Numbered from the stretch's first letter, positions 831 through 53,660 are shown. The stretch is DNA of 64,000 nucleotides from Torpedo marmorata (GCA_977017645.1 OZ360226.1:134602001-134666000), one strand, 5' to 3'. The notes: generated by a model from the sequence alone, not told the origin. Numbers and translations: made by a program.

Positions 831-3234
831 TCAGAAATAATTTAGAGAGTGAATTACATGAGTTCAGTTTTACTGCCATTGCCACTCATCTTTTGGAGTA
901 TTCTACTCCTTCCAATACTAATGCTGATATGACTTTAAAAATTATGTGAAGATGCATTGTATAAACTCCATATTATATTCTCAGTGCTTTTTTTCCTTTA
1001 TGACTTCTGTCAGTAAAAGATTTGGGAACAGGAATACCAAAAACATGCAATTTTGGCAGACATGCTTTGCTTAGATAGCATCTTTGTAATGTGCTATCCA
1101 GAAGGTGGCTCTTCATAACATGTATATGCTGGCCAAAATTGACAATATTGATCCGACTTCTCAGCTTTTCATGCATATCCATACAGATCATGGCTCTTTA
1201 ATTGTTCACTCAGATACTTTTTAAAATAATGATTACTACTGTCTCTGCCATCCATTCAAGCTGTGAATTCCAGACTCACCACTTGTGAATTATTTTTTCC
1301 TCAACCATTCTTAGCATTCTACACATTATCTTAAAATCTATGCCTTCTAATTTCTCTGCCAAGAAAAATTGTTTTTTATAATTACCCTGTCTGAGCCACT
1401 CGTAATTTTTCAAGCTCCAATTAAATCTCATTGCTGTCTCCTTTTGTTTCAGGAAAAGACAGTTTGTCCTTGTAACTATAAATGTCTATCCCAGGAAACA
1501 TCCTCCCGTACCATTTGACAGAAACACATGGATACCCAAAGTAAACAGCTAACAAGTGCTCCACCTCCTGAATTACCCTCTTGCTTGTCGTAGACACTCG
1601 TCGTGTGCCCCATGTTGCCCATCTTGAAACACACAGAACTGGAGTGGAAGCAAGTCATGCTTGATCCTGGAATACTGAAGAAGAAAAAGAGATTTTCTTG
1701 TTTATTTTCCTTTCCAAAGTACATTACTTGTACATCTAATTTCTGTTTAACCCTTTGGTGCCCATTTAACCAATCTATTGATTTCTTCCTTTTGCCTTGA
1801 AATTTTTTTTTTCATTTCAACCCCACTGACAATTTTGGTATCTTCAGCAAACTTCTCAATTGTGGCAGTTATATTTTATCCAAAATTTTACTCCAAAATT
1901 CAGTCCGATGGAACTCCACTTCTTGCAACTTTCTGGTCTCATCAGCCATTCCCATTTCTTTATGGCACTGACCACGCTTTTAATTCCAGTTGCTACTTTC
2001 CCTCGCATCCGATGGGCTTTGCGATTTTGATCAATGTCTTTAGCAAATTATATGAGAGGCTACCATTGTAACAACAGAATGTCGAAGTGAAGTTGCAATC
2101 TGATCAACCATGATTTTGTATGGTAGAGCAGGCTTGAGGGATTAGGCAGCCTATTCCTGTTTCTAATTAATTTGTGTGTATTTGTTTGTCTGCTGTTCTG
2201 ATGTAATGGTTCAGTTATAACTGAAGCATTGATCCTTGCTCATGATGGAGTTCCACCAGAGCAACTAGAAAATTTAAATTCAGGTAATTAAATACATCCT
2301 GGAATTTAAAAAAAAACTGTGTCTTAATAACAGTGACTGGGCAACTCTGACATTCTTTTAAAATCCTATCTGCTTCACTGATGTTCTTCATGAAAGAAAA
2401 TGTGCAACCCTTGTCTGGCCCATATGCAAGTTTGGATCCACCAATTGGGTGAACTCTTAACTAGTAACTTGGCTTGAGGCAATTGGGAATGAACAGTAAA
2501 TTCTGCATTTCCACCATTCATTCCACCTTTTTCTTGTAACCATTTCATTGTTCTGCATTTAATTCTTATTTGTCTTTTCACATTCTTGCATCTTGAATTA
2601 TCGCTCCTTTTGACATGTTAAAGACAGTTTAACTTTTCTAGTTGATGAAGAAGCATCAATTTACATCAATGATAACTTTGTTTCTCTCTCCATAAATGCT
2701 TCCTGACCTGGAGCATTTGTGGCATTTTATTATTCCTACAAATGGTGGAAATTTAGAAAATATTTATTTCTTATTTGGGATAATTCATTAAAATTAAACT
2801 CTGCAAGTAGAATAAGCAAGTGAGAATAATTAACACGGTGTTCAGAGAAGGTAGTTGAGATGTTTAGAAATGTTTAAAAATATTTATGAACTACAATATG
2901 GAAATACTACCAGTAATAACCTGCATAGATGACCCAATTGGCATAAAGTTGTAGTTTAAACCAAGATTAATAATGTTTTTTAAAAAAAAATATTTTATTT
3001 AAAATTTTAAATCACAAAATACATAAGGTAAAATGTAAAATTATCAAAATACATGTGATACATTTTCACCCCCCCTCCCTCCCTCCCCTCCCACCCCTTC
3101 TAATCTACTAAAATAAAAAAGAAAGAAAGAAAGAAAAAGATAGAATAAGGAGAATGTCAATCTAAAAAATACATCTATAACTAATTTTATTATGGAGGAT
3201 AGGTTCGCCAGTCAGATCCGATGTCCAGAGATCT

Positions 3235-6200
3235 TCAAATCCTTAAACCAACAACCTTCATATATGGGCTCCATATTTTCAAAAAGAAATGATATTTATT
3301 ACGTAAATTATAAGTAATTTTTTCAAGTGGTATACATGAACGAAGTTCTGCATGCCATCTTTCTAACCCTAAATCTACGTCAGATTTCCAAGTAATAGCA
3401 ATACATTTCTTAGATACCGCTAAAGCAATTCGCAGAAATTCTATTTGATACATATTTAATTTCATCTTAATACTAACTCTTTTAATATCTCCAAACAAAA
3501 ATATCATAGGGTCCATTGGGAATGTAATTTTTAATACTTTATCTAAATAATTTTTAACTTTCAACCAAAAATCATAAACTTTTGGACAGGACCATGTAGA
3601 ATGTACAAAAGAACCTTCCTCTCTATTACATCTAAAACATAAGCCTGATAATGTCGCGTTAAATTTCTTTAACTTTTTAGGTGTTAAATATAATTGATGA
3701 AAAAAGTTATATTGAACTAATCTATATATAACATTAATAATCTTTGTCATACTTAGTTTACATAATTCTTTCCAATGATCTTCATCTATTGTTACATTCA
3801 AATCTAATTCCCACTTTAATCTTGATTTATGAATTCCTACTTTAGGGATTTTTCTCTGAAACAGTCTATACATTTGAGAAATAAATGTATTTACATCTCT
3901 GTTAGTAACTAATAATTCTAATTCACTCTGTCTTGGTAAAGTCAAACTATAGCCTAATTTCCCAAACAAAAATGCTCTAATTTGAAAATAAGCAAAAAGT
4001 GTATTATCCAATATATTAAATTTATCTTTCATTCTTTGAAAAGTAATAAATTTACCAGCTTCAAAACAATCATTTATTTTCTTAATTCCTTTTTGAAACC
4101 AAATTTTAAATAGTTGATTATTAACAGTAAATGGAATAAGTTTATTTTGATATAGAGGCATTTTTGGAGAAATCAACCCTTTTCCTTCTATTTCCTTATC
4201 CACTCTATTCCATATTTCTAGCAAACGTTTAAAGATAGGAGAATTCTTCCTTCTTGTTAATATTAATTAAAAATTCCATTTATAAATAACTTCTTCTTTG
4301 GAATCTTCTCCTATACTATTTAATTCTATTCTAATCCAAGCAGAAGACTTAGTTAAATCAAAAAGTTCATTAACAAATTTTAGTTGAGCTGCTTTATAAT
4401 AATTTTGAAAATTAGGAAGTTGTAAACCACCCATTTCATAATTCCAAGTTAATTTTTCTATACCTACTCTAACCAACTTTCCTTTCCACAAAAACTTCCT
4501 AATAATTAAGTTTAAATCTTTAAAAGAAATTTTAGGAATTTCATAAGGAATTGATTGAAAAAGATATTGAATTCTTGGAAAAACATTCATTTTGATACAA
4601 TTTACCCTTCCCATTAAAGTTATAGGTAAATCCTTCCAACTCTCTAAATCTTTTTTAATTTTGATAAATAATGGTAAATAATTTAATTTATACAAATTAA
4701 CTAATTTTGTATCAATCTTTATTCCCAAATATTTAATTCCTTCTTTTGACCATTTAAATTGTGTAATTTCTTTACATTTGCTATAATCCCCTAGCGTTAA
4801 TGCCATAATTTCACTTTTATCAGAATTATTCTTATAACCAGATATTTCCCCGTATTCTCTCAATAAAGCAGTCAGTTGTATTAAAGAAGTAATAGGTTTT
4901 GTCATATATATCAATACATCGTCTGCAAATAAACTAATTTTATGCTCTTCCCTTCCAACTTTAATACCTGCAATCTTAACATCTTGTCTAATTAATTCTG
5001 CCAAAGGTTCTATCGCTAAAGTAAACAATGCTGGTGACAAAGGACATCCTTGTCTAGTTGACCTAGTCAAAGGGAATCTTGAAGAAATTTGTCCATTTGT
5101 AACCACTTTAGCAGATGGTTCTTTATATATAGTTTTAATCCAGTTAATAAATGTAATTCCAAAACCAAATTTCTCCAATACCTTAAATAAAAAATTCCAC
5201 TCTAATCTATCAAAAGCCTTTTCAGCATCTAACGTTAATACTAATGCTAAATCATCCTTTTTTATGCACATTAATTAAACTAATTAATCTAGCTATATTA
5301 TCCTTTGAATATCTTTTTAATAAAACCAGCTTGATCTACATGGATTAAATCTGGTAGATAATTAGCCACTCTATTTGCTAAATTTTTTGCCATTATCTTA
5401 TAATCCACATTTAACAATGAAATTGGTCTATATGATTCTGTTTTCAACACATCTCTATCTTTTTTAGGTATAACTGTAATTATTGCATTTGAAAATGTAT
5501 CCGGTAACGAATGAGTTTCCGTTATTTGTTTCAACACATCCATAAATGTAGGTATCAATAAATCTTTAAACTCCTTATAAAATTCTGATGGAAAACCATC
5601 TTCCCCTGGAGATTTACCACTCGTTAAAGAAGTAAGAACCTCATTAACTTCCCTCATTGAGAAAGACGAGTCCAAAAATTCTTTACTTTGAGTATTTAAT
5701 CTAGGTAACTTAATTTTAGATAAAAATCTATTAATTTTAGAATCATCGATCAATCTGAGATTTATATAAATTCAAGTAATAATCTTGAAAAGAGTCATTT
5801 ATTTCTCGAGGTTTATACGTTATTTTCGTAAAATTCTTTTTTATAGCATATATAGTTCTAGAAGTTTGATCTTTCTTTAATTGCCACACCAACACTTTGT
5901 GTGCTCTTTCTCCCAGTTCATAATATCTTTGTTTAGTTCTTTCAATTAATTTTTCCATTTTATATGTTTGTAACAAATTATAATGCAATTTTTTTCCAAC
6001 TAAATTATTCCTTTTTTCGTCTGATCTCTTTTTTTGCAAATCCTTCTCCAAACATTCAATCTCCCTCTCCAAATTATCCACCTCTCGAAGATAGTCCATC
6101 TTAATTTTTGCTGAATAACTTATTATTTGACCTCTTAAATAAACCTTTAAAGCTTCCCAAATAATAAATTTATTATCAGTCGAATTAGAATTTATTTGTA

Positions 6201-10449: not shown

Positions 10450-10776
10450 TGTAGCAGTCCGCGGCCTACTCCGTAGGCCGACACAGGAAGCAATGGTCGA
10501 ACGCGACGATCACGCAGGCGGCATGTGATCCAAACGGCCCGTTTCGATAGGCCACAACAGCAGGGGGGAAACAAGCCAATCCCCGACGGCGGATCGTGGC
10601 CCGACCAATCCTGGTCGACAGATCGCAAGCCACGCCTACCAGTAACGTGGCAGCCAGGCTCAGCCAGCCTATAAAAGGCAGAGCAGATAGCCGAATAAAC
10701 TAGTGTTGACTCAACTCTCGGTGTGTGAGCATCTTCTTCCAGAGCTCCAGAGCTATCACCGTAGCGATGCGCTACA
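10450..10776 (+). repeat. Gypsy 5' LTR (327 bp)
   Basis: TGTAGC...GCTACA termini, internal TATAAAA and AATAAA. About 15 substitutions and one 8-bp duplication relative to the 3' LTR (hand count). Confidence 0.95.
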
Positions 10777-10777
10777 G

Positions 10778-10790
10778 TGGTGACCCCGAC
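10778..10790 (+). promoter_or_regulatory. Primer binding site complementary to the tRNA-Trp 3' end
   Basis: TGGTGACCCCGAC, one base after the LTR, is complementary to ...GUCGGGGUCACCA of vertebrate tRNA-Trp. Confidence 0.85.
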
Positions 10791-10818
10791 TAGTCCAAAC
10801 GGCAATTTGGACCTGAAG

Positions 10819-11287
10819 ATGAACGAACAACCTACAATCAACACGGTTTTAGTTGAAGCTACCGAGCTTCTGGACGTCGCAACCACTGGTGTGGTTCGAA
10901 CAGGCCGAGGCACAGTTCGCAGTTCTTCAGATCTCCGCTGACGCCACATGCTACTACCACGTGATGAGCGCCCTTGAGCAGGAGATGGCGGCCAGGATCA
11001 TCGACTTCCTGCGGTATCCTCCAGAGCAGGGGAAGTATGTGGCCATCAAAGAGCTCTTAACCTGTACTTTCGGGCTCTCGAATCACAAGCGCGCGGCCCG
11101 ATTGCTGCATATGGACGGTTTGGGGGACAGGGCCCCTTCTGCCCTCATGAGCAACATGCTCGCTTTGACCGACGGCCACAGACCTTGCCTGCTCTTCGAG
11201 CAGATCTTTCTGGAGCGATTGCCAGAAGACATCCAGCTGCTGCTCACGGAGGAGGATTTCGGCAACCCCAGGAAGGTAGCTGCCTGA
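10819..11287 (+). pseudogene. Gypsy gag-like ORF with frameshift and premature stop
   Basis: ATG at 10819 (MNEQPTINTV), then a shifted frame KLPSFW..PLVWFEQAEAQF..LGDRAPSALM, typical of small-gag Gypsy elements. Confidence 0.8.
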
Positions 11288-11439
11288 GCAGACGTGCTCT
11301 GGGCGGCGAAGAAGGCCGCCTGTGCGACGCTGGAGCAGGTGACCATGCCTCGACCGCAGCAAACGACCAGACGGCTTTCCGACCGGACGACCCACCGACC
11401 GACAGACCCCACCGGTGAGCAGTACTGTTTCTATCACCA

Positions 11440-14400
11440 ATGGTGGGGTTCCGAGGCCCGTTGATGCCACTCCCCCTGTGCGTTCCAGGGAAACGCCAGA
11501 GCCGGCCGTCGCAAGCATCAACGACGGCCAGCCTACATCACAACCTCCTCCACATACGGGACTCCCTGTCGGGCCGCCGGTTCCTGGTCGACACCGGGGC
11601 CGAAATCAGCGTTTTTCCCCCTTCCAGCTCCGATGTCCACAGCAGCAGGGTTGGACAAGCCCTGAGAGCGGCCAATAATTCAAACATTCGTACCTTCGGC
11701 ACCCGCACCATCCCCCTCCGTTTCGGAGACAGCCATTTCACTTGTAAGTTCACGTTGGCGGCCGTGCAACACCCATTTCTGGGTGCGGATTTCCTTAGGG
11801 CCAAATCTCTAGGGGCAGAGACTGGTGCACGCCACAACCTTTCAGACTCTTTCCCTGGGTGGAACCGAACTCACTGTCCCCCGCCTACACTCGGTAACAG
11901 CCGGCAACAACGAGTTTGCGCGGATTGTCACCGAATTCCCCGCCATCGCAATGCCACACTTCTCCTCGGCAGAACCTAAGCACGGGGTTAGGCACCATAT
12001 CCTTACAACGGGACCTCCCCTTCACGCCAGGGGCCTCCCCCCTGAAAAACTCAACCTCGCCAAGGAAGAGTTTCGAAAAATGGAAGAGCTCGGTATCGTG
12101 CGGCGCTCTGACAGCCCCTGGGCCTCCCCACTCCACATTGTGCTCAAGGCGGCAGGGGGTTGGAGACCATGCGGGGATTACCGCCGTCTCAACAAGGCCA
12201 CCACGCTGGACAGATATCCATTGCCCTACATCCAGGACTTCATCGCCAACCTACAAGGGGCTCGGATATTCTCGAAGGTGGACCTCATCAGAGGCTATCA
12301 CCAGATCCCAGTCCACCCGGAAGACATTGCCAAGACTGCCATAATCACCCCCTTTGGTCTGTTTGAGTTTCTCCGAATGCCGTTCGGCCTGAAGAATGCA
12401 GCTCAAACCTTCCAGAGGTTGATGGACGCAGTGGGCCGGGATCTCAAATATACCTTCATCTACTTGGATGACATATTGATAGCCAGCCGCAACCGTGCCG
12501 AACATGCCACCCACATAAGGCAATTGTGCACCCGCCTTAGTGAGTTCGGTTTAACAATCAACCCAGCCAAATGGCAGTTCGGGCGAGAGTCCATAGATTT
12601 CCTGGGGCATCGTATTAACAAAGATGGGGCCAGGCCGCTGCCCAAGAAGGTGGAGGCCATCCGGTCGTACACACAGCCAACAACAGTAAAGGGCCTTCAG
12701 GAGTTCACTGGTATGGTTAACTTTTATCACCGTTTCATACCGGCAGCAGCCTGCATCATGCGGCCCTTGTTCTCCCTCATGACAGGTCCAAAGAGGGAGA
12801 TCGAGTGGACGCAGGAAGCATCAGAGGCTTTCCAAACAGCCAAAGACGCCCTGGCATACGCCACTCTCCTGGTGCATCCAAGGACAGACACCCCGATCGC
12901 CCTCACTGTGGACGCCTCCAACACAGCGGTCGGGGGAGTACTTGAGCAGCTTGTCGCTGGACAATGGCAGCCGCTAGCCTTTTTCAGTAAGCACCTCCGC
13001 CCACCGGAGCTCAAGTACAGTGCTTTTGATTGGGAGCTCTTAGCTTTATACCTGGCGGTCTGGCATTTCCGATACTTCCTGGAGGGCAGGAAGTTCAAGA
13101 TATTCACGGACTACAAACCGCTCACCTTTGCTTTCGGCAAGGTATCAGACCCATGGTCAGCCAGGCAACAAAGGCACCTGTCCTACGTATCTGAGTTCTC
13201 CACAGATATCACACACATTGCCGGGAAGTCGAATGTGGTGGCCGACGCACTATCACGGCCAGCCATACTGGCCGTGCACGCCCCCGCCCCAGGCATCGAC
13301 TACACAGCCCTGGCTGAGGCACAGCAAGCAGACCCCGACATGCCCGCATACCGGACTGCGATAACCGGTCTCCGCCTAGAGGACGTACGCATCGGCTCAG
13401 GGAAACAGACGCTTCTGTGTGACACCTCGACCAGTACGCCTAGACCTATCATACCTGCAGCATGGAGGAAGCGAGTCTTCGACACAGTCCACAACCTGGC
13501 GCACCCGGCCATCAGAACCACAGTTAAGATGGTGGCCAGCAGATACGTATGGCACGGTCTTCGCAAAGAAGTCAGTCAGTGGGCCAAGACCTGCACACAT
13601 TGCCAGGCATCAAAGGTGCACACGCACATTAGAGCCCCTCCCCAGTCATTTGAACCGGCACGGCAGAGGTTCAGCCATGTGCACATAGACATTGTAGGCC
13701 CTCTACCGGTATCAAGAGGTGCCCGATACCTCTTGACGATGATAGATCATCTGACCAGATGGCCGGAAGCAGTCCCACTAGCGGAAACATCCACAGAGTC
13801 GTGTGCTAGAGCCCTGCTAAGCACCTGGGTGGCACGGTTTGGGGTCCCGGAACAGCTTACATCAGACAGAGGTGCTCAGTTTACTTCCAACCTTTGGGCG
13901 ACCTTGGCCAACACCCTGGGAATGCAACTCCACCCTCAGGCCAACAGGTTGGCGGAGAGGTTCCACAGGCACCTCAAGGCAGCCTCATGGCCCGGCTCAC
14001 AGGATCCCACTGGGCCGACGAACTTCCTTGGGTCCTCCTAGTCATCCGCAATGCTCCCAAAGAGGATTTTGACGTGTCTGCAGCAGAGATGGTCTACGGC
14101 GCACCCCTGGTCATCCCGGGCGAATTCCTGGCTGGCGCCGGGAACACGGAACAAACTCCAGCGGCAACCCTGACTCGTCTGCGGGAACGACTAGGTACGC
14201 TGGCCCCGGCACAACCCAGGGCATATGGCCAGCCCAAAATATTCGTCCCGAAGGACTTAAAGGACTGCAAACACGTTTTTGTAAGGCGCGGAGCACATCG
14301 GCCACCACACCAATGGCCGTACGAAGGACCGTACCGTGTACTCAGGCACAACGGCTCCACCTGTGTAATACATATTGGCAGCAGAGAAGAAACTTTCACG

Positions 14401-14523
14401 GTTGACCGGCTCAAACCAGCGCACCTGGACCCTGGCCAACCGGTCACTCATCCTATCCCAGGGTTGCCTCCCAAATACAAAACCGCCACACAGATCGCCG
14501 GTTCTGGGGGGGGGGTCGTGTAG
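11440..14523 (+). pseudogene. Gypsy pol (protease, RT, RNase H, integrase) broken across three ORFs
   Basis: FLVDTGAEIS (protease); WRPCGDYR, MPFGLKNA and YLDD (RT); VDAS and NVVADALSR (RNase H); H..H..C..C, HIDIVGP and SDRG (integrase); GPY motif. Confidence 0.95.
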
Positions 14524-14837
14524 CGGTCCGCGGCCTACTCCGTAGGCCGACACAGGAAGCAATGGTCGAACGCGACGATCACGCAGGTGGCACGTGATCC
14601 AAACGGCACGTTTCCGTAGGCCACAACAGCAGGGGGAAAACAAGCCAATCCCCGACGGCGGATCGTGGCCCGACCAATCCTGGTCGACGGATTGCAATCC
14701 ACGCCCACCAGTGACGTGGCAGCCAGGCTCAGCCAGCCTATAAAAGGCAGAGCAGATAGCCGAATAAACTAGTGTTGACTCAACTCTCGGTGTGTGAGCA
14801 TCTTCTTCCAGAGCTATAACCGTAGCGACGTGCTACA
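14519..14837 (+). repeat. Gypsy 3' LTR (319 bp)
   Basis: Direct repeat of 10450-10776, preceded by a poly-G PPT and followed by TSD AGAC. Confidence 0.95.
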
Positions 14838-19468: not shown

Positions 19469-21841
19469 ATCTTCTGATGGAAGCATTCAAACTATTAAAG
19501 GTTTTTTTCCAACCCTTCAGGCACTTGAGTATGAATCGATGTTAAAGTAGAATAAAAATGCAAAGTCATGGCAAAACAAATCTGAAGGAGAAAATAGAAA
19601 AAATGGCTTGCTGAATTAGTGAAATTTGCTGACAAATCATTCATCATTTCTCATGTACATTACAGTTTTTAGCATTATTTTGATATAATGCCAGGAGCAG
19701 TCAACCACTCTGCTGCTCCAACTATTGGGAGACAGCTCCAATTTCAATCTTGCTGTCTTTCTTTTTCACTTGCTGTTTTATTTCTCTCGCCCACCTCCCC
19801 CCCCCCAAGAAAAAGATTAGCATCATCGATTTTTTTCTTGCTTACCCCATTTTTTTTCTTGTGTACTCTTACTCTCCCACCCTTTCTGGAACTATGCAGC
19901 TCTCGCAGATGGACAGTGGAGGAGCATATATGGAATGTTATCTTACTTCCCTTGCTGAGTTCAAATGGACATCCAAAATGTCAGGTGCAGTACAGGAGTT
20001 GATAGAATTCATTCCATAGATTTTTGGATGTATTTTGCCCACTAAATGAGGATTCCAACATCTCTGCAGACTAGTTCTGTGGACAATCGAAAAGTTGCTT
20101 TGTATCGGTTTAACATTGTGTTAATAAGATTCAGATCTTCTGTAAAATTTGTTTCTTGTTTCACCATGTAATTCTTTCATGTAAAAAAATACAGCAGATT
20201 CCTGACGACTGCTCATACTTTGTCTCTGGCACTTTTGTTGATCGTCTATTTCTCCAGATCCACTTGTTGAGTCAACAAATGCAAGCTAATTTCACAATAA
20301 CAAATAAATAATATTTTTAATCATTTGTACACCCACCCATACACTGCAACAACACTGAGACAATTTAGTTTTGTGAATAAAGTGGTATCTAGCCATCATC
20401 CAAATTATAATCTCCATAATCTTGCTAATTAGGTGAACTCAGATTGCTAGAAGTTAACATTTATATGAGATTTCATTTAACATTTGGGAAACCTTTTATC
20501 ATAACAAGTATTCATTATATGGGGTTCACAGCATGTTAAAACTGCCTGATGTGTAATGATCCTGATTTTAACTGATTATGAGCATAATGACACATCTGAC
20601 ACAAATTTAAAAATGTAAAAATCAAGGAAAATTATTATCTGCTTAAAAAATGCTGCTGTAGACATCAATTATGGAGTTACGGAATCCTGTTTAGTAAGAA
20701 GCTGCTCTTCCCAAATACACACTCTAGGGAATTACTATATATGCTGCCTACCCAGGATATTAATTAAAAATGTTCATTATTCTGTGCTACATTCCCTCAA
20801 GAATCAAATGGAACTTAGCAGAGTTGAAGGTGGTCCTTCTTCTGCATCCTCAGACTGATGTTCCTGAATCGCCTGATTGTGGTAATGCTCAACATTGTCA
20901 GTGGCCTGTATATTTCATGTTGCCACATGCTGATTAATATGCTCTGTAATACTGAAATGAGGTGATCACTTATTATGTTGCTTCGTAGTGAAGATAACAA
21001 TGACATGAGGCTGACTGACACGTCTACTCTGATGCCGACGCCGTAATCTTTCATTGGCTTGCTAATCAGTCTGATATAGACAATATTTCTTCCTGAAATC
21101 CTAAATCTGAACATGCATATTCTCAATTGAATAAATAGATCAGTTATTATATTACTGTCACAGCATGATACTTGTACTTAATGCTGTAAGTGGTAATTGA
21201 TTAACATGATTGTCCCTTGGGATGTCAACTGCTAGCAATACATTAGCACTGCACTGCAAGGAATTGTACATTGTTATGAGCTCATTGTTTGCTTTGTGAA
21301 AGGAACTAGTAACCTGAGCACTGTTATGGTGCTCAGGTTACTAGTCATGTTACTCATCTCTTCCACACTGCTGTCTGAATCTCCAAGTACAAGCCCTCTT
21401 AGAACGAGAAAAGAAGGGTAAAGCACTGTTTGTAAATCATACCATGCAAACCTGCAGCCACAGTGCACAAGACAACTTTTTTCACTGCTTTTGTCAAACA
21501 GAAATACAAAATGCAAAATCATTATCTCATTGGGTGAGTGTTGTATCTTTGGAATAGGCTTCCAGGAGAGATGGGGGAAGCAGACTGTTAATTCATTCCA
21601 TGCATATTCAATCTTTTATTTTGGGAAATAATGTTTAGGAGTAGTTTGACACAAGTGTTGGGTGAATCAGATGATTATGGGCTAAGACTCTGAAAACAGC
21701 TTTGAAATGTAGGTTCTTCTTTCCTTGTAATTGATGAGGATTTGCTCGATTGGTCATTAATAGTGTTATTGTGTGATTGTGGTCTCATGGAATATTTCTT
21801 TTTTATCAGTTCTTTTGTTTAACTGAATTTCACATAGTTTT

Positions 21842-22540
21842 TAGAACATAGAACATGTTGTGCTGACCGATGTAAACTTACTCCACAACAATCCAATCCT
21901 TCTCTATCTCACACCCATAACCCTCTTACATCCATGTGCCTGTCTAAGAGTCTTTTGAATGTCCTTATTGTACCAGCCTCCACCACCACCCCTGGTAATG
22001 CATCTCAGGCACCCACCACTCTTTTTTGAGTAAAAAAAAAATTACCTCTGATATCTCCCGTAAACTTTCCTCCACTCACCTTAAACTCATGTCCTCTGGT
22101 ATTTGCTATTGTTACCCTAGGAAAAAGGTGCTGGCTGTCCATCCTCACAATCTTGTATATTTCTCTTAAGTCACCTCTCATCCTTTGAGGTTCCTGGCAC
22201 TAAGTGACACCAGCATCACTCTCTGCCACTTTGCTGCCCAAGAGTGAAGGAGTTGTCTTCTGTTGGAAAAAATGTCAGAGTTTCACCGAACGTAAGTAGA
22301 CCCAACTTGTCCATGCTGTCCAAGTTGGCGTCTACCCAAGCTAGTCCCATTTGTCTGCATTCGGCCTATATCTCTCTAAACATTTTTTACCCATGTACCT
22401 GTCTAAATGTCTCTTAAATGTTACAATTTTATCTGGATCCCTCAGTGAGGAAAAAGATGCCCATCAAGTCCTTTTTGAATTTTTCCCCTCTCAATCTCTG
22501 GCCTCTAGTCTTAGTCTTTTTCCCAGGGGTAGGGGAGTCT
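21842..22540 (-). mobile_element. Cluster of CR1-type 3' fragments
   Basis: TAGAACATAGAACA tail and CR1 3' UTR-like sequence, with a second fragment from ~22290. Confidence 0.6.
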
Positions 22541-22542
22541 AT

Positions 22543-24268
22543 TATGTTTTTTACACAGCAATCCCATGATATTTCCGTAATGAAGACCCTCCAATATTCC
22601 GGCATTGGTCGTTCACACTAAAAAGAACAAAGCCGGCATTTTTCCAGGTCAGTGCGTCTTTTTACAGAGCAAGCCGGCATTCCGTGAACAAAAGGGGTGG
22701 GACATGTAACTCAACAGCGTCGGCGTCTAGTGTCACGTATAACACCGTATTTGACAACATGTTAGACCCACTTGTTTTTCCCAAAAAATGGCTCAAAAAT
22801 ATTCCCACGGTCTTATATGCCAGGTTGAAATTAGGGTGATAATGGTGAGTAACACCGACAGTAACGCTGTCGGTCCTCGCACTGGTCATTGTTTTGAGAA
22901 AGTGTCAGGTCCGTGAGAGACGAGTCTGGATACAAGGGTTTGCTATCAAACGTTACTTTAATAGAAGAGCGTGGGAAAATCGTAGCGGGAATAAAACACA
23001 CACGCGCACAATTAATAGAAGAGCGTGTGAAAAAACGCGCACAATTTAATAAGACATATGCGCACAATGTATAAAAGAGCGTGGGAAAATACACGCATAA
23101 TTTAAGACATACGCGCACAATTTATAAAAGAGCGTGGGAAAATCTGCAAGTATTGATCTATAGCAGTGGATTTCAAACTTTTTCTTTCCACTCACATACC
23201 ACCTTAAGTAATCCCTTACTAATCACCGCTACCTATTGTTGGGGGCTGGTGGCGGGCTATCGGTGGGGGAACGGGGCGGTGGGCTTCAGATTGTTCAAAC
23301 TGAGGACAAACCCACAGACCAGCTTGCTCACAATCTGGCAGACCAAGTGTCAAATCTTTGTGCTTTGTGATTGCCCTCACAATCTGGCAGACCTAGTGTC
23401 AAATCTAGGGTTAGGGTTCAGGTTAGTTTGTCAATATGCGGGCAGCAGGATAATCATCCCTCTTGTGTTCACTGGTGTCCTCTCTCAGAGGTTCTGTGTC
23501 ACTATAAACTGCCACTTTTGGTTGGCCCATGCTTTCATTACCTTGTGCCTGTTTCTAGCTCGAAGTGGGATCAGTGCCTTACTTTCTTTCCGGTACTTTT
23601 TGTGCATTTTGATATGTCCTGGGGTAAGTTTATTGTCTGCATAGTGGGTGACCTTATATTCACCCCTTAGGGTTAGGTGTGGGATTTGGGATAGGGTTAG
23701 GTTTTGGGTTAGGGTTAGGTGTGGGGCGAGAGTTAGGCTTAGGGTTATGGATAGGGTTCTGGTTAGTGTTCGGTGTGGGGTTTCAGAGTAGGGTTGGGTG
23801 TGGGGTTAGGGTAGGTTCCGGTTCGGGTTAGGTATGAGGTTCAGGGTTAGGGGTTCAGGTTGGGTGTGGGGATCAGTTTAGGATTAGGGTTCAGGTTAAG
23901 CTTAGCGGCCCACAGCAACAAAGAGCAGGACCGCCGGGACAGAGCGGGACAACGGGCCGCGGGAGAGAGCAGGCAGTGGACCGCCGGGACAGCGGGCCGC
24001 GGGAGAGAGCAGGCAGCAGTAAAAAAATTATGGTGCACAATATACTTAGAAAATTACAGTACACAATACACATCATGATCCGAGTTGGTCCCGGAATGCC
24101 AGAAGTGCAGTTTACACTGCAGGCATTCCGGGAATTTTACAAGTCCCTTTGCGGTAAAAAGACGGGACTGGAATGGCACCCCCATTCTGTTTCCGTGCTT
24201 TTTACACAACACACGTTCCGGAAAAAAGGAGAAAATGTCCCGGAACGAAGTGGATGTGTAAAAGCATA
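22543..24268 (+). mobile_element. Composite non-autonomous TIR element, copy A (PIF/Harbinger-like termini)
   Basis: Ends TATGTTTTTTACACAGC and GTGTAAAAGCATA. No transposase. Whole length is an inverted match to 24376-26233. Strand is arbitrary. Confidence 0.7.
23667..23900 (+). repeat. Degenerate telomere-like (TTAGGG/GGTTAG) tract in copy A
   Basis: Repeated GGGTTAGGGTTAGG variants. Confidence 0.85.
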
Positions 24269-24630
24269 TTTGACTTATCTCTTCTCATCAAGATTTGTGA
24301 GTGGTGGGTGCCTGAGATGGATTGCCAGGGGTGGTGGTGGAGGCTGGTACAATAAGGACATTCAAAAGACTCTTATATGCTTTTTACACAGCACTTCGTT
24401 CCAGGACATTATTCCCTTTTTTCTGGAATGTGTGCCGTGTAAAAAGCACGGAACCGGAATAGGGGTGCCATTCCAGTCCCGTCTTTTTTTCGCCAAGGCA
24501 CCTTGTAAAATTCTCGAACCGCCTTCAGTGTAAACTGCACTTCTGGCATTCCGGGACCAACTCGGGTCATGATGTGTATGGTGTACCGTAATTTTCTTAG
24601 TATATTGTGTACTGTAATTTTTTTAGTGCG

Positions 24631-24922
24631 ACCTGCTCTCTCCTGCGGCCCGCTGTCCCGCTCTTTCCCAGTGGTCCGCTGCCTGCTCTCTCCCGCGTTT
24701 GCTGTCCCGCTCTGCCCCACCGGTCCGCTGCCTGCTCTCTCCAGTGGCCCGCTGTCCCGCTCTGTCCCAGTGGTCCACTGCCTGCTCTCTCCCGCGGCCC
24801 GCTGTCCCGCTCAGCCCCGGCAGTTTGCTGCCCGCTGTCCCGCTCAGCCCCGGCGGCCTGCTGCCTGCTCTCTCCCGTGGCACGCTGTCCCGCTCTGTCC
24901 CGGCGGTCCGCTGCCTGCTCTC
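24631..24922. repeat. GC-rich ~50-bp minisatellite (about 6 units here, about 2 in copy A at 23921-24018)
   Basis: Recurring CCTGCTCTCTCCCGCGGCCCGCTGTCCCGCTCTGTCCC..GGTCCGCTG. Confidence 0.85.
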
Positions 24923-24941
24923 TGTTGCTGTGGGCCACTAA

Positions 24942-25135
24942 GCCTAACCCTAACCCTACCCTGAAACCACACACCTAACCTGATCCCCTCGCCTAACCCA
25001 AACCAGAACCCCACGCCTAACTCTAACCTGAACCCCACGCCTAACCCTAACCAGAACCCCAAGCCTAACCCTAACCAGAACCCCAACCATAGCCCTCACC
25101 CTTACCCTATCCCGAATCCCACACCTCGCCCTAAG
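24942..25135 (-). repeat. Degenerate telomere-like (CCCTAA) tract in copy B
   Basis: CCTAACCCTAACCCTA variants, mirroring 23667-23900. Confidence 0.85.
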
Positions 25136-26334
25136 GTGTGAATATAAGGTCACCCACTATGCAGACAATAAACTCACCCAGGACATATCAAAAAGCACAA
25201 CAAGTACCGACCGGAAAGGAAATAAGGCACTGATCCCACTTTGAGATAGAAACAGGCACAGGGTCATGAAAGCATGGGCCAACCAAAAGTGGCAGTTTAT
25301 AGTGACACAGAACCTCTGAGAGAGGAGACCAGTGAGGGATGATTATCCTGCTGCCCGCATATTGACAAACTAACCTGAACTCTAACCCTAGATTTGACAC
25401 TGGGTCTGCCAGATTGTGAGCAAGCTGGTCTGTGGGTTTGTCCTCAGTTTGAACAGTCTGAAGCCCACCGCCCCGCTCCCCCACCAACAGCCCGCCACCA
25501 GCCCCCAACGATAGGTAGCGGTGATTAGTAAGGGATTACTTAAGGTGGTATGTGAGTGGAAAGAAAAAGTTTGAAATCCACTTCTATAGATCAATATTTG
25601 CAGTAGATTTTCCCACGCTCTTTTATAAATTGTGCGTATGTTTTATTAAATTGTGCGTGTATTTTCCCATGCTCCTTTATACATTGTGCGCGTATGTCTT
25701 ATTAAATTGTGCGCGTTTTTTCCCACTCTCTTTCATAAATTGTGCGCGTGTGCTTTATTCCCGCTACGATTTTCCCACGCTCTTCTATTAATTGTGTGTT
25801 AATAAAAATAACGTTTGATAGCAAACCCTTGTGTCCAGACTTGGCTCTCACGGACCTGACACTTTCTCAACACAACAATGACCAGTGCGGGGACCGACAG
25901 CGTTACTGTTGGCGTTACTCACCATTATCACCCTAATTTCAACCTGGCATATAAAACCGGGGGAATATTTTTGAGCCATTTTTTGGGAAAAACAAGTGGG
26001 TCTAACATGCCGTCAAATACGGTATGTTATACGTGACATTAGACGCAGATGCCGACGCTGTTGAGTTACACGTCCCACCTCTTTTGTTCGCGGAATGCTG
26101 GTATGCTGTATAAAAAGGTGGACAGATATGGAAAATTGCAGGTTTTGGTCGTTCCAGTGCAAACGGCCAATGCCGGCATATTGGAGGCTCTTCATAACGG
26201 AAAAATCGTGCGAATGCTGTGTAAAAAAACACATTTGACAGGCACATGGATGTAAGAGGGTTATGGGTGTGAGATAGAGAAGGATTGGATTGTTGTGGAG
26301 TAAGTTTACATCGGTTGGCACAACATGTTCTATC

Positions 26335-27510
26335 ATCCCCTATCTTCCCCCATCTTTCTGTGATCACAGGGAAAAGTCCCAGTTTATCCAATCTCCCGTT
26401 ATAACTCAAGTCTGCCAGTCTCAGTAACACGCTCATGAATCTTTTCTGATCCTTTCCAGCTTAAATTGACATTGCTTTTATTGCTGGGTGACCAGGACTG
26501 CGCATAATACTCCAGATGATGACTCTCAATGTCTTGCACAGTTGTAAATGATACCTCAACTCCTGTCTTCAATGCCCTGATCGAGGAAAGCAATTAGACC
26601 AGAAACCACTTTCATCATCCTCTCTACCTGTGTGTACAATTTCAGAGAACTATGTACCTGCACCCCTTGGTCTCTTATTCTACGACAATCTCCAGGGCCC
26701 TACCAATTACAGTGCTGTAAAGTTTTGCCTTGGTTTAACATACTAAAATACAACACTTCAAATTTGTCTGAGTTTAATTCCACCTGTCTTTCTGTGGCCC
26801 ACTTTCCTATTATATCACTAATTTTGATGTCATCCATAGATTTAACAACAATGCCAACTACTCTGTAATCCAAGTTGTCAATGTAGATGACAAACAACAG
26901 TGAACCAACACTGATCCCTATGGCATACCACTGGTCACTGAGTAGGGCAACGAGTATAAGAGTAAAGAAGTCTCCTGTAGCTATATGAAACTGGTTGGAC
27001 TGCACTTGAAGTATTGTGCGCATTTCTAGTTGCCCCATTGCGGAAGAATATGGAGGCTTTGGAAGAGGTTTACCAGGATGTTGCTGAGATTGAAGGGTAT
27101 CACTTATGGGGAAAGGTTGGACAAACTTGATTTGTTTTCTCTGAAGGAGGTTTAAAAAATTGAAAGGCATTGATAGGGTAGATGGTCAAAATCTTTTTCC
27201 TTGTGTAAAAATGTCACATACTGCAGGACGTGCATTTAAGGTGAGGGTGAGAAAGTTTAAAGATGATGTGTGGGACAATTTAATTTACGTTGAATGGTAG
27301 GTGCCTGGAACAGTCCGCTATGAGTAGTGGTGGAAGCAGATATGATGGCAGGGTTTAAGAGACTTCTGGATAGACGCGTGAATGTGCGGGAAGAAGAGAG
27401 ATATGTATCCTGTGCAAGCAGCAGAGTTTTAGTTTCACTTGGGCAACATGTTCTGTGCAGACATGTGGACAGAATGGCCTGTTCCTGTGCTATTCTATGT
27501 TCTATGTAAC
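26335..27510. mobile_element. Two divergently oriented CR1 fragments (minus ~26335-26940, plus ~26941-27510)
   Basis: Minus frames give LLFVIYIDNLD..KSMDDIKI and HLEYYAQSWSP. The plus part ends in a CTATGTTCTATG tail. Confidence 0.7.
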
Positions 27511-39325: not shown

Positions 39326-40264
39326 CAGTTCCCTCCATAACGTTTCGGACAAAAAAATTCCTTTATCAAACAATTCACATGTAATTAAAGTACACCTTCC
39401 AGATTTTATTCAAGGTTATTTGTTTACATTTTGGTTTGACCATGTAGAAATGTCAGCACTTTTTATACATTGCCCCCCCCCCTCCCCTCTCCATTTCAGG
39501 GCACCATAATGTTTGGGACATATGGTTTCACAGGTGTTTGTGAGTACTCAGGTATGTTTAATTGCTTCATTGGTGCAGGTATAAGAGAGCTACGCTTGCT
39601 TCTAAGCTTTTGATCACCTTTGGAATCTGTAGTTGCTGTTTTTCAAAATGAGGACAAGAGTTGTGCCAATGAAAGTCAAAGAAGCCATTATGAGTCTGAA
39701 AAACAAGAATAAAACAGTAAGAGACATCACCCAAACCTTAGGATTACTAAAATCAACAGTTTGGAACATCATTAAGAAGAAAGTGCGTATTGGTGACCTC
39801 AGTAATCACAAAGGGACTGGTATTCCAAGGAAGTCCTCCACTGCTGATGACAGAAGAATTCTGCTGATGACAGAAGAATTCTCATCATAATGAAGAAAAA
39901 TCCCCAAACGCCTGTCCAACAGATCAGAAACACTCTTCAGGAGGCAGGTGCGGATGTGTCGATGACAACTGTCCGTGGAAGACTTCATGAACAGAAATAC
40001 AGAGGCTACACTGCAAGATGCAAACCTCTAGTTAGCCACAGAAACAGGATGAGCAGATTAGATTGCCAAGAAGTTTTTATGTATAAAAAGTGCTGTAATT
40101 TCTACATGGTCAAATCAAAATCTACAAAAATACCTTTTGTTAAAATCTGGAATGTGCACTTAATCACATATGAATTATTTGATTACAAATTTAAAACTGT
40201 GGAGCACAGTTTTAAAGGAAGGAAAGAAATTGTGTCTTTGTCCCAGACATAATGGAGGGCACTG
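39326..40264 (+). mobile_element. Tc1-family DNA transposon, internally deleted
   Basis: TA-CAGTTCCCTCCATAA ... ATAATGGAGGGCACTG-TA termini. N-terminal HTH remnant (STVWNIIKK, TGIPRK, VSMTTVR..ARCKPL). DDE domain missing. Confidence 0.9.
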
Positions 40265-41982: not shown

Positions 41983-43881
41983 CCGTATATTTTGGCGTAT
42001 AAGTCGACTCGCAGATAAGTCAACCCCCCTTTTTCAGCCTCATTTTAATGGTTTTATTGTATATCCGGCGTATAAGTCGACCCCCAAAAATTGCAATGCC
42101 TGAGATGCTGAGCGTTGACCGGCGTATAAGTCGACCCCCAAAAATCGCGATGATTGAGCTGCTGGGCGTTGACCGGCATATAGGTCGACCCACAACGATC
42201 GCGCTGATTGAGCTGCTGGCCGTTGGCTGGAGGTGATTGTTATCATGGAGGCTCAATTGAAACGACGAAAGTATGAGGCGAGTTTTAAATTAAAAGTGAT
42301 AGAAATGGCCAAGAAAACCAACAACTGTGCTGCTGCAAGAAAATTTGATATATATGAGAAGTTGGTAAGAGATTGGAGGAAGAAAGAAGATACATTAAGA
42401 AAAATACCAAAAAGGCAATGTTCGATGAGAAAAGGAATCACTCGTTGGCCAGTGTTGGAAAATCACGTCGCAGCATGGGTACGTGAAGAGGGGCAAGATT
42501 GCTACATAGTCACCCGAAATAAAATAAGAACATTTGCACTAAAGTGGGCAAAGTCACACCCAGAACTCAGTAAAGATTTTGAAGCTACAGTAGGCTGGTG
42601 CAACCGTTTCATGAACAGGAAAAATCTGGTTTTACGACAAAAAACAAAAATTGCTCAGAAACTCCCAAAAGGTCTTGATCATAAAGTTGTAAGTTTTCAC
42701 CAGTTTATTTTACGTAACCGGCAGAAACACAAGTTTGCATTGGCAAATATTGGAAATATGGACGAAACCCCCATGAATTTTGACATGATAGGCAATAGAA
42801 CAGTGGAATGGAAAGGTGTGAAAACTGTGCAAACGAGGAGTACAGGCCATGAAAGGACCAGGTTTACTGTGGTGTTATCGTGCATGGCCGACGGGACAAA
42901 GTTAAGATCCATGGTAATCTTCAAACGTAAATTTAAACCTAAAATAAAATTCCCTGCGGGTACTTTTGTACATTTTCATGAAAAAGGATGGATGGATGAA
43001 AATGGTGTAAAACTATGGATAGACAATGTGTGGAACAGGCGGCCAGGCGGTTTACGCAAGGAACGGAGTTTGCTGGTCTGGGATATGTTTCGTAGCCACT
43101 TAACTGAGAAGACTAAAAGTAGATTAACACAACATAATACTTACATGACGGTTATCCCGGGTGGTTTGACGTCTATATTGCAACCTCTCGATGTCTGCTT
43201 GAACAAGCCATTCAAAGACCATGTGCGTGAAGAGTGGAATACATGGATGTCGAGTGCAGAAAAATCATTTACAAAAGGCGGGGCAATGCGTGCTGCATCG
43301 CTTGATGTTCTGTGTGACTTCGTGCTCAAGGCATGGGACAAAGTGAAAGTAGAGACTATAATAAAATCGTTTAAAAAGTGCGGTATCTCTTGTGCAATTG
43401 ATGGTACGGAAGATGATTTATTGTGGGATACTGACGACGAAGCTGAAGCCGCCTCATCAGATACAGACTGGGACCCGTATGATGACTGTTTAAACAGTGA
43501 GACCCTGGATGTGCTTGCCGAGATCTTTGCCTTAGACGATGATAGCGAAAGTGATTTTGAAGGGTTCTAAATGTCTTGTTGTTTTCAATAAAAATGTCAA
43601 TGAAAATTTGTTGCAGTCAGGTTTTTTTTTGGTTTTTAAGGGTCGACTTATACGCCGAATCGGGTTTTCAAGGGTCGACTTATACGTCGAATCGGGTTTT
43701 CAGGGGTCGACTTATATGCCGAATCGGGTTTTCAAGGGTTGACTTATACGCCGAATCGGCGTGGAGTGGTTTTTGAGCTGATTTTAAGGTCTCAAAAGTA
43801 TATCCGGCGTATAAGTCGACCCCTGTTTTTTGAGAGATTTTTGAGGGTTTCAAGACTCGAGTTATACGCCGAAATATACGG
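41983..43881 (+). mobile_element. pogo-superfamily (Passer/POGK-like, DD35D) DNA transposon, full length
   Basis: TA-CCGTATATTTTGGCGTATAA ... TTATACGCCGAAATATACGG-TA termini, repeated subterminal GGCGTATAAGTCGACC motifs, single ORF. Confidence 0.95.
42245..43570 (+). CDS. pogo-type transposase, 441 aa, uninterrupted
   Basis: Brinker-like N-terminus (YEASFKLKVI..AAARKF..VRDW), CENP-B-type HTH (GWCNRFM), triad NMDET / VWD / QPLD with 35 residues between the last two Asp, acidic tail. Confidence 0.93.
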   Translation: MEAQLKRRKYEASFKLKVIEMAKKTNNCAAARKFDIYEKLVRDWRKKEDTLRKIPKRQCSMRKGITRWPVLENHVAAWVREEGQDCYIVTRNKIRTFALKWAKSHPELSKDFEATVGWCNRFMNRKNLVLRQKTKIAQKLPKGLDHKVVSFHQFILRNRQKHKFALANIGNMDETPMNFDMIGNRTVEWKGVKTVQTRSTGHERTRFTVVLSCMADGTKLRSMVIFKRKFKPKIKFPAGTFVHFHEKGWMDENGVKLWIDNVWNRRPGGLRKERSLLVWDMFRSHLTEKTKSRLTQHNTYMTVIPGGLTSILQPLDVCLNKPFKDHVREEWNTWMSSAEKSFTKGGAMRAASLDVLCDFVLKAWDKVKVETIIKSFKKCGISCAIDGTEDDLLWDTDDEAEAASSDTDWDPYDDCLNSETLDVLAEIFALDDDSESDFEGF

Positions 43882-43970: not shown

Positions 43971-45754
43971 AATTAAATATTTGGGAATAAGGGTTGATAC
44001 AAAATTGGCTAATTTATACAAATTAAATTATCTACCATTATTTGTGAAAATAAAGAAAGATTTAGAAAATTGGAAAGATTTACCTATAACTTTAATGGGA
44101 AGAGTAAACTGTATTAAAATGAATGTTTTTCCAAGAATTCAATATCTTTTTCAATCAATTCCTTATGGAATTCCTCAAAAAATTTTTAAAGATTTAAATT
44201 CAATTATTAGAAAATTTTTATGGAAAGGAAAGTTAGCAAGAGTAGGTATGGAAAAATTAACTTGGAATTATGAAATGGGTGGTTTACAACTTCCTAATTT
44301 CCAAAATTATTATAAAGCAGCTCAATTAAAATTTGTTAATGAATTTTTTGATTCAACTAAATCTTCTGCTTGGATTAAAATAGAATTAAATAATATAGGA
44401 GAAGATTCCAAAGAAGAAATTATTTATAAATGGGATTCTAAATGAATATCAACAAGAAAGAAAAATTCGCCTATTTTTAAACATTTGTTAGAAATATGGA
44501 ACAAGACGGATAAGGAAATAGGAGGAAAAGGATTGATTTCTTCAAGGATGCCTTTATATCAAAATGAACTTATTCCATTTACTATTAATGATCAATTATT
44601 TAAAATTTGGTTTCAAAAAGGAATTAAGAAGATTAATGATTGTTTTGAAGCTGGGAAATTTATTACTTTTCAAAGAATGAAAGATAAATTTAATATATTA
44701 GATAATACACTTTTTGCTTATTATCAAATTAGAGCTTTTCTGATTGAGAAATTAGGTTATGCTTTGATTTTACCAAGACAAAATGAATTAGAATTATTAG
44801 TTACTAATGGAGATGTTAATAAATTTATTTCTCAAATGTATAAATTGTTTCAGAGGAAAATGCCTAAAGTAGGATTGCATAAATCAAGATTAAAATGGGA
44901 ATTAGATTTGAATGTAAGAATAGATGAAAATCATTGGAAAGAATTATGTAAATTAAGTATGACAAAGATTATTAATGTTAGATATAGATTAGTTCAATAC
45001 AATTTTTTTCATCAATTATATTTAACACCTAAAAAATTAAAGAAATTTAATTCGACACTATCAGGTTTATGTTTTAGATGTAATAAAGAGGAAGGGTCTT
45101 TTGTACATTCTACATGGTTTTGTCCAAAAGTTTATGATTTTTGGTTGAAAGTTAAAAATTTTTTAGATAAAGTATTTAAGATTACATTTCCAATGGATCC
45201 TATGATATTTTTGTTTGGAGATATTAGAAAACTTAGTATTAAGATGAAATTAAATATGTATCAAATAGAATTTTTGCGAATTGCTTTAGCTGTTTCAAAG
45301 AAATGCATTGCTATTACTTGGAAATCTGATGTAGATTTAGGATTAGAAAGATGGCATGCAGAACTTCGTTCGTGTATACCACTTGAAAAAATTACTTATA
45401 ATTTACGTAATAAATATAATTTCTTCTTAAAAATTTGGAGCCCATATATGAAAGTTGATGGTTTAAGGATTTGAAGATCTCTGGATATCGGATCTACTGC
45501 CATACTTGACCTCCATAATAGAATTAGTTTATAGATTGGCATTCCCCTTACTCTATCTTTTTCTTTCTTTTTCTTCTTCTTTTTCTATTTTTATTTTATA
45601 TATATATATTTTTTTTATTAGATTAGTGGGGTTGGGAGAGTTGGGGAGGGGAGGGAGGGAGGGGGGTGAAAATGTATCACAAATAATTTGATAATTTTAT
45701 ATTTTATTTTATGTATTTTGTGATTTAAACATTTTAAATAAAATATTTTTTTTT
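43971..45754 (+). mobile_element. L1 family A, 5'-truncated
   Basis: 14-bp TSD TAAAGTGGATTCTT at 43957-43970 and 45755-45768. ORFs 43981-44445 and 44485-45474 closely match the 3' part of ORF2 in the 2978-8113 copy. Confidence 0.95.
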
Positions 45755-46829
45755 TAAAGTGGATTCTTGCAGACACAATTGAAAGGATAACAGAAAATAT
45801 ATATATATATATTCTAAGAAATAGAAACTTGAGTGGGACAATTAGCTCTAGGATTCTGCTCTTAAATTAAACCATGGCTGATTATGTACCTCCAAGTACA
45901 CATTTTACACATATCCTCTGAATTTCTGTGCAATCAAAAATATATTATTTTTCTGGTCTTGAATTTAATAACGACTCAGTACCCACAATGCTATGAAAGA
46001 AAATTCAGCTCAATAGTCAAGTGTATCACAGTAGTTGTATGTTTACATTTCATTGCTTCAAAATATTTCAACTTGTGAAGTGCAAAAAAAAGCTATGTAA
46101 TCCTGCATGGGTGCTAGTTAACTTCAAACTTACCTACATTTATGCAAAATGAGAGGCTAAATAACTAGTGGGTCATTTAAGTTCATCTTTGCAAAAAGAG
46201 AGACTACCGGTATATTAACAAGTCAGCCGCAAGGTAGGAAATCTAGATTTAACATGCCCAATTCAAGTTCTGCTTTCAATTTGATTGTTTCATTAGATAT
46301 ATTTTTATTCTGAATTCAAAAATAAAAAAGGAAATTGCTCAATCTGTGATCTGCTTCCTTGAAAATAATCAATTTGGAGGAAAATGTTTGTAGGAAAGGA
46401 AAGTAAGATTAAATATTTTTAAATGGGTGAACAAATGAAATAATTTATTGCAGAATGGTATTGTAGGATTTTTTTTCTCTGCATTAATTTCTTCCTCATT
46501 TCCCAGTACAAAACTCTTCCTTTGAATTAAACTGATGTTAAGTTTGTAATTTGCTGAAGTTGATCTCTTCAATACAATTAAATTACAGAAACTGCAATTC
46601 ATGCCTTGTGAGTTAATACAAGGTTCACAAAGAATGTGAGACATGAGTATGTTTTTTGTATTGTTATTCATTCAGTAAACCTTAAACAATGTACAGAACA
46701 GGAAATATATAATTAAAGAGTGGAATTGTAGGAGAAATTTACTTTTTAATCTGTCCACTATTGAAATGAAATTACAGTAGCTTAATCTGTCTATAGTTTG
46801 AAATTAATATTAATGGATGCTTTATATTA

Positions 46830-53556: not shown

Positions 53557-53660
53557 AGTAAAACATGAAAATCTGCAGACACCATGGTTGAAGTAAAAAC
53601 ACAATGCTGGAGAAACTCAGCAGGTCAAGCAGTGTCCTTTATATAGCAAAGATAAAAATA

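Follow-up and report, generated by a model that had tools for sequence, protein, structure and literature searches.

The 64,000-nucleotide stretch of Torpedo marmorata DNA analysed here (GCA_977017645.1 OZ360226.1:134602001-134666000; hereafter the window) contains a long palindrome that consists of two separate copies of one transposon family, an inverted dimer of a Harbinger MITE (miniature inverted-repeat transposable element). Both arms, copy A and copy B, are non-autonomous PIF/Harbinger elements, and they are independent insertions of different subfamilies. As a locus, the palindrome is ordinary and made of two dead transposons. Across the genome, copies of the family adjoin one another about 40 times more often than chance predicts, and this excess of same-terminus pairs is solid. 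We propose that the second element was likely inserted beside the first, as this family's transposition complex probably prefers to insert no more than about 100 bp from an element end that is already in place.

A comparison of the window with itself recovered the inverted arms (22547-24269 against 26228-24375), as an earlier note on this DNA, which had asked for a self dot-plot, led us to expect. A lies on the plus and B on the minus strand, tail to tail, and the 107-bp spacer described in that note occupies 24269-24375. Globally aligned to the reverse complement of B, A matches it in 1474 columns and differs in 147, and a further 342 columns contain gaps. This amounts to 90.9% identity on ungapped columns, within the 85-95% previously estimated by eye, or 75% if gaps are counted. 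Identity per 100-column block is about 0.79-1.0 and lower at the ends, and the gap columns mostly represent copy-number differences in tandem repeats. The window sequence contains no N, and the left junction of A is bridged by one contig from another run. None of the independent contigs searched bridges the spacer, so the A-B junction rests on the assembly; positions 24274-24294 had no covering contig among four contig sets, which is not evidence of absence.

The genome-wide search for further copies with shared termini and target site duplications (TSDs), also suggested in the earlier note, returned many, with a TSD of 3 bp. In the 6.2 Gb searched, first-look candidates numbered 3039 for the A left end, 1102 for an interior piece and 2631 for the B left end, figures that are not copy numbers; 40 were scored per query. 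The right terminus, taken as an exact 20-base string, is present 249 times. A 14-base terminus of either end occurs 2807 times (1443 + 1364), compared with 121 occurrences of a reversed control, so that elements with these ends, sister subfamilies included, number on the order of a thousand. Family copies are dispersed, mostly 0.9-2.1 kb long, and differ by internal deletions and later retroelement insertions.

The family has an autonomous partner. Long family copies were set aside as candidates, the first 19 loci having carried retroelement or satellite insertions, except for one (L098; loci fetched from the genome carry L numbers), in which the right end of the family continues into a Myb-like reading frame. 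A search with this frame yielded 40 scored matches, and both ends were found in 9 of 18 extended autonomous-type loci, spanning 3.2-5.0 kb, with clean ones at about 3.3 kb. The autonomous element comprises a multi-exon transposase and a convergent Myb-like gene. In natural copies, Pfam identified DDE_Tnp_4 (PF13359) on exon 3 of L146 (E 5e-19) and Myb_DNA-bind_4 (PF13837) on L141:523-1137 (E 2.5e-12). A GAIDGTHI motif is present in 2 of the 4 natural stretches checked, and two N-terminal transposase stretches alone gave no Pfam match. The protein closest to the transposase exon comes from the electric ray Narcine bancroftii, in line with a ray host, and bears the name 'Putative nuclease HARBI1' (P0001; 78% identity over 99% of the query). 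Most other relatives, from fish or frog, reach 47-62%. These protein names are automatic, and they describe neither an element nor its target or MITEs. Copy A matches the autonomous element over its first 202 bp (86%) and its last 189 bp (95%), with no similarity in between. The shared ends, together with the two protein domains of the partner, bear out the assignment of the arms to non-autonomous PIF/Harbinger elements, and A and B were presumably mobilised in trans by the 3.3-kb element.

Some autonomous-type copies (L136, L148/L176, L184) have one arm internally inverted, with the left end facing inwards, and are possible autointegration products. In two others (L156, L157), a 42-bp minisatellite inside the Myb-like gene has grown to about 1 kb or more.

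The termini read TATG..CATA with TTTTTACAC, in agreement with the earlier description, and the left end of B has TGTG instead; the terminal inverted repeat (TIR) of the family is imperfect and about 18 bp long. Among 35 full copies in which both ends were recognised, the 3-bp TSD is perfect in 21 and has one mismatch in 9, and duplications of 4, 5, 6 or 8 bp were found in none. The TWA duplication that had been expected did not hold up. Over 171 flanks, the target consensus is WC|WNW|GW. A C (G on the right side) flanks the TSD in 142, ANT is the commonest triplet class (67), TNA accounts for 15, and TTA and TAA together for only 14, with AAT, ATT, TTT, ACT and TCT being commoner. The family thus inserts at C|WNW|G and duplicates 3 bp there. 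The empty site of B is visible in the window at about 21945-21947, and also in paralogous contigs of a long interspersed nuclear element (LINE) that run on with GACAGGCAC at 24375. Elsewhere, several independent family insertions share a target hotspot, a short host-repeat stretch around AGTCCTTAAATGAGTC (flanks in L007, L013, L019, L069, L086, L238 and L038).

The independence of the two insertions is apparent from diagnostic sites, at which 30 A-type copies can be told from 26 B-type copies. A carries A-type alleles at 18/18 left-end and 8/9 right-end diagnostic sites, and B carries B-type alleles at the same proportions (18/18 and 8/9). Over seven segments, each compared with 59-142 other copies, rare alleles number 30 in A and 24 in B, with only one common to both. 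Gene conversion between the arms, which we considered, is unsupported by this single common allele. The earlier proposal of a local hop, if read as a copying of A to B, finds no support in the same observations, although the adjacency of family members is nonetheless non-random.

The order of events around the pair can be partly reconstructed from a LINE-tail segment, x, and its inverted copy, x', which received B. The two differ at 4 positions in 174 bp (2.3%) and share an 8-bp deletion and five substitutions that are absent from eight other copies (the best at most 83% alike). A local templated duplication therefore produced x' first, and B, which splits x', was inserted into it later; x lacks B. 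A single composite transposon formed by A and B was rejected, as B has its own empty site. A micro-inversion directly left of A probably predates it, as a single contig, derived from another organism, matches the inverted segment as far as 22539 and diverges from the window sequence there. The idea that A caused this inversion was dropped on the evidence of the same contig.

To quantify adjacency, the genome was screened for two exact, outward-facing 14-base termini 3-300 bp apart. Four loci show this arrangement (spacers 39, 45, 67 and 224), whereas 0.094 are expected from the number of termini (P 3e-6); the excess has a P of 1.4e-3 if local density is five times higher, and of 0.016 at ten times. 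Two more pairs, that of the window with a spacer of 107 bp and L096 with one of 65 bp, do not fit the exact pattern and were recognised by alignment, giving six pairs in total. Two further loci are not counted among them, L097, whose copies lie 3.5 kb apart, and L099, with a truncated partner at about 170 bp. L098 was dropped as a pair, since it mirrors a single insertion with identical flanks across an N gap (G000:C11:6493000-6500300) and reflects an inverted duplication or a scaffolding artefact. Five of the six pairs are inverted (p 0.11), and four stand right end to right end (p 0.04), which is post hoc and suggestive. In one inverted pair (L240; G000:C57, about 60.65 Mb), the outer flanks, AGT and AAT, are nearer to one target than the inner flanks are, and this pair may have moved as a composite.

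How would such pairs form? By analogy with a known vertebrate system, a Myb-like protein on the end of a resident element may hold an incoming transposition complex, which would then insert at a suitable target close by. The site that B occupies is the first consensus target past the right end of A, and A may have preceded B. Where the new copy is inverted, a palindrome would result as a side effect that implies no function. In zebrafish, ORF1 of Harbinger3 encodes a Myb-like protein that binds the transposase as well as the TIRs (PMC2836001). Multimers of adjacent or nested Tourist MITEs in rice go back to independent insertions (Jiang and Wessler 2001, via PMC5172404). A more far-reaching version is tentative and, to our judgement, rather doubtful. 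Here, vertebrate Harbingers of the same or a related family would home to each other by Myb-like tethering within about 100 bp, preferentially right end to right end, and would systematically build palindromes, while C|WNW|G would represent a target class outside the six groups of PIF/Harbinger in the broad sense (PHIS; Han et al. 2015).

Elements of other families beside focal ends were counted as well. Of the first 100 right-terminus sites listed, a first census covered 80 (another 6 fell in loci fetched earlier, and 14 were left out), and the left end was located in 57. It yielded nine Harbinger-type neighbours, five within 300 bp (41 kb searched) and four across the 3.2 kb that follow (424 kb searched), with p 5e-4; the 300-bp zone makes up 8.8% of the flank searched, yet it holds 5/9 of the neighbours. 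A control with hAT pieces placed 1/6 within 300 bp (p 0.43). Other Harbinger-type families with different termini lie at about 3, 14 and 47 bp from focal ends, and one neighbour is nested (L204). As the termini differ, hopping of an element next to itself cannot explain these cross-family neighbours. The fetched loci also contain a second abundant Harbinger-type MITE family of about 495 bp with CCCCTTTTACACAG termini (L110:4006-4500, L244-L272; 2656 first-look candidates), and further related Harbinger-type families occur in L183, L224, L236 and L238.

A number of observations count against insertion guided by resident ends. The neighbour library of the first census was built from neighbours in the same loci, with leave-one-out as the only safeguard, and the cross-family excess was not replicated when 101 loci were examined in a second census: by script, 1/6 neighbours lay within 300 bp (p 0.75), and after two distances had been corrected by eye, 3/6 (p 0.10), all three at loci known beforehand. 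The second MITE family was represented by 29 copies, and not one has a Harbinger neighbour within 300 bp. Terminus pairs are absent at 301-500 bp, a weak control (P 0.07 against a flat 42-fold excess). Unused consensus targets lie inside three of the six spacers, and use of the nearest target, which we tried as a rule, holds in only 3/6. In three of the four genome-wide pairs (L239, L240, L242), the facing ends are of the same subfamily type and about 89% alike. At the window locus, the TSDs are each one mismatch off perfect. Interior diagnostic sites of the two arms are mixed, with A being B-type at 6/6 sites in A 835-1000 (a small reference set), and for this reason a short early conversion between the arms may have occurred.

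The most serious competitor, though an unlikely one, dispenses with tethering. Poly-T and protein-bound element ends would leave the adjacent DNA open or bendable for any transposon. Cross-family neighbours fit this idea equally well, and at L221 the distance between a focal end and an unrelated MITE, one with CAGTG ends, is 82 bp. However, the hAT pieces show no excess within 300 bp in either census (1/6 above and 1/8 in the second), small counts though these are.

Classical local hopping, in which an element is excised from a replicated chromatid, reinserted beside its sister copy and diverges later, seems distinctly improbable as the general explanation. Documented cases include Sleeping Beauty, Tc1, P, Tol2 and Ac/Ds (PMC3878927), and local hopping also fits the likeness of the pairs L239, L240 and L242, because their facing ends belong to the same subfamily. 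For same-subfamily pairs elsewhere it may apply, but not for A and B, which differ at all 18 left-end and at most right-end diagnostic sites. In addition, pairs of different families exist, and the scale given in PMC3878927 is 200 kb to a whole chromosome rather than 100 bp.

Chance juxtaposition of two abundant repeats is still less probable: the genome is repeat-rich, there are about a thousand family copies, and the second census is non-significant, but the four pairs observed leave the window pair and L096 uncounted, and chance is tenable only if local density varies more than 10-fold. Equally improbable is a single rearrangement (inverted duplication, fold-back repair, composite transposition or assembly error) that made both arms. 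In its favour, A is flanked by a micro-inversion and by a genuine local inverted duplication (x/x'), L098 mirrors one insertion, the outer flanks of L240 are nearer to one target than the inner flanks, and the spacer is without a bridging contig from outside. Against it, divergence is 9% between the arms and 2.3% between x and x', x is free of B, each arm has its own flanks and its own TSD in a window without N, and the subfamily data speak against duplication.

Insertion close to a resident end, as preferred here, has its nearest parallel in plants. According to PMC5172404, Tourist MITEs of rice and maize are adjacent or nested far beyond expectation through independent insertions, with self-insertion in some families. 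The same-terminus pairs in T. marmorata are likewise independent, adjacent copies above chance. In contrast to the plant multimers, they are formed in a vertebrate by elements of 1-2 kb, are mostly adjacent rather than nested, and are inverted in 5/6 cases, which results in kb-long palindromes. Inverted Alu pairs, too, are inverted repeats of kb scale or below, and they go back to separate insertions of a single family. At close spacing they show a depletion compared with direct pairs (PMC3215922), whereas inverted pairs form the majority of the small sample here.

The inverted repeat has evidently persisted, with its arms now 9% diverged. Folding of 400 bases per arm together with the spacer gave 349 pairs across the spacer, and a transcript of the palindrome would thus be predicted to form a long hairpin. 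This upholds one half of the earlier claim, that the arms would pair as double-stranded RNA. The other half, transcription as part of an intron, found no counterpart in the list of open reading frames (ORFs) of the window, where by eye only transposon-type ORFs and no host exon were recognised. Long, close inverted repeats are usually seen as unstable or selected against, and these pairs suggest that they can arise repeatedly by insertion preference alone. If tethering is true, it would supply a mechanism for the rice MITE multimers. Harbinger systems attract interest as tools for inserting genes, and for these it would offer a targeting rule found in nature. With the autonomous partner known, the tethering idea can be tested directly in cells.

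With respect to classification, PIF/Harbinger elements are described as having a transposase, a Myb/SANT protein, a 3-bp TSD and non-autonomous derivatives that keep the ends (Han et al. 2015, PMC4482050; Etchegaray et al. 2022, PMC9179366). The present family agrees with PHIS in its DDE_Tnp_4 transposase, Myb/SANT second ORF, short TIRs, 3-bp TSD, length of about 3.3 kb and ends-only derivatives. It differs from PIF/Harbinger in its WC|WNW|GW target instead of TWA, in its TAT..ATA termini and in derivatives that hold 1-1.5 kb of nested-MITE and satellite sequence; the strict definition (Han 2015) has a 5'-TWA-3' TSD, seen here in 14/171. NuwaII shares the conserved C and G around the 3-bp TSD (142/171 here) and a Myb/SANT second gene, but requires TNA (15/171 here) and mostly GG termini, unlike the TAT found here. 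Pangu is alike in that ANT is the commonest class of our family (67/171), but it has AG/GG termini and a second ORF without known motif (for both groups, PMC4482050). Going by these descriptions, the target appears to fit none of the six PHIS groups exactly, with NuwaII-like C/G flanks around WNW rather than TNA, TWA or pure ANT.

Academ and IS3EU, suggested by the TAT termini, were dropped after the Harbinger partner and the 3-bp TSD had been found. IS3EU/GingerRoot elements, with TA..TA termini, have a 6-bp TSD according to PMC10045372, a length found in 0/35 copies here. Three supplement files of PMC4482050, which may contain no TIR sequences, are without TATGTTTT, TATGCTTT and TTTTACAC. 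The literature searched, with subscription papers outside its scope, gave no account of the family or of adjacent Harbinger pairs in vertebrates.

Between the shared ends, both arms carry cargo in the order reported earlier, that is, repeats, a hAT-MITE end, a unique part, a telomere-like tract and a GC minisatellite. The CAGTGG piece coincides with a depth peak and loose contig ends, which point to the end of a very abundant MITE, and a sister subfamily has further inverted copies of it. We take this MITE to be a hAT element. In all 29 other loci fetched with the unique segment, more of the element matched as well, and the segment had no match in Pfam or Rfam and no source outside the family among these loci. 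Rfam over 21500-27000 gave no match, and Pfam matched 0/5 chance ORFs in the arms. The cargo-carrying description therefore stands in so far as the cargo is common family-wide; the parts that could be traced are nested-transposon debris and satellites. Nothing in the sequence indicates capture of a host gene. The features of the locus are listed in Table 1.

Table 1. Features of the palindrome and its flanks, in window coordinates.
Feature	Position	Strand	Remarks
LINE-tail segment x	21848-22021		inverted copy x' = 24299-24375 plus 26237-26333, received B
Micro-inversion	22514-22539		26 bp, in LINE directly left of A
Target duplication of A	22540-22542	+	left TAT, right TTT at 24269-24271; 1 mismatch; GTC|..|GAC site
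Copy A	22543-24268	+	1726-bp non-autonomous PIF/Harbinger element; A-type left end (CAGCAATCCC)
A left end	22543-22744	+	common to autonomous Harbinger, 86%; imperfect TIR of about 18 bp plus TTTACAC/CCGG motifs
Tandem repeats GAGCGTGGGAAAA / GCGCACAATT, A	22958-23143	+	copy number variable across family
Nested MITE, one end	23164-23226	+	very abundant MITE; CAGTGG terminus
Unique segment	23425-23665	+	family-internal, about 240 bp
TTAGGG-like tract, A	23667-23898	+	degenerate
GC minisatellite, A	23928-24018	+	25-bp unit
A right end	24080-24268	+	common to autonomous Harbinger, 95%; precedes Myb-like gene there
Spacer	24269-24375		107 bp = 30 bp rearranged LINE sequence + 77 bp of x'
Target duplication of B	24373-24375	+	TTA, other copy TTT at 26234-26236; 1 mismatch
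Copy B	24376-26233	-	1858-bp element, family of A; B-type left end (CAGCATTCGC)
B right end	24376-24565	-	common to autonomous Harbinger, 89%
GC minisatellite, B	24632-24923		25-bp unit, expanded
TTAGGG-like tract, B	24938-25113		degenerate
Tandem repeats GAGCGTGGGAAAA / GCGCACAATT, B	25607-25759		copy number variable across family
B left end	26022-26233	-	common to autonomous Harbinger, 82%

The window holds several other elements. A second inverted structure at 53592-56392, with arms 53592-54279 and 55688-56392 that are 91.5% alike, surrounds reverse transcriptase and GIY-YIG-like frames and by eye resembles a head-to-head Penelope insertion. At 10450-14837 lies what appears by eye to be a gypsy-type long terminal repeat (LTR) retroelement; its two LTRs are 93% alike, and its pol stretch spans 742 codons. 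Two L1/Tx1-like LINE copies (2978-4738 and 43971-45758), 88.5% alike, stand in opposite orientation 39 kb apart. The regions 42212-43567 and 39851-40249 contain a 452-codon transposase frame adjoining 32- and 54-bp tandem repeats, plus a transposon fragment; the frame is presumably pogo-like and the fragment Tc1-like. Among the fetched loci, L109:4071-5466 (minus strand) is an intronless stretch, probably a processed pseudogene, which we take to resemble the C-terminal part of isoleucyl-tRNA synthetase.

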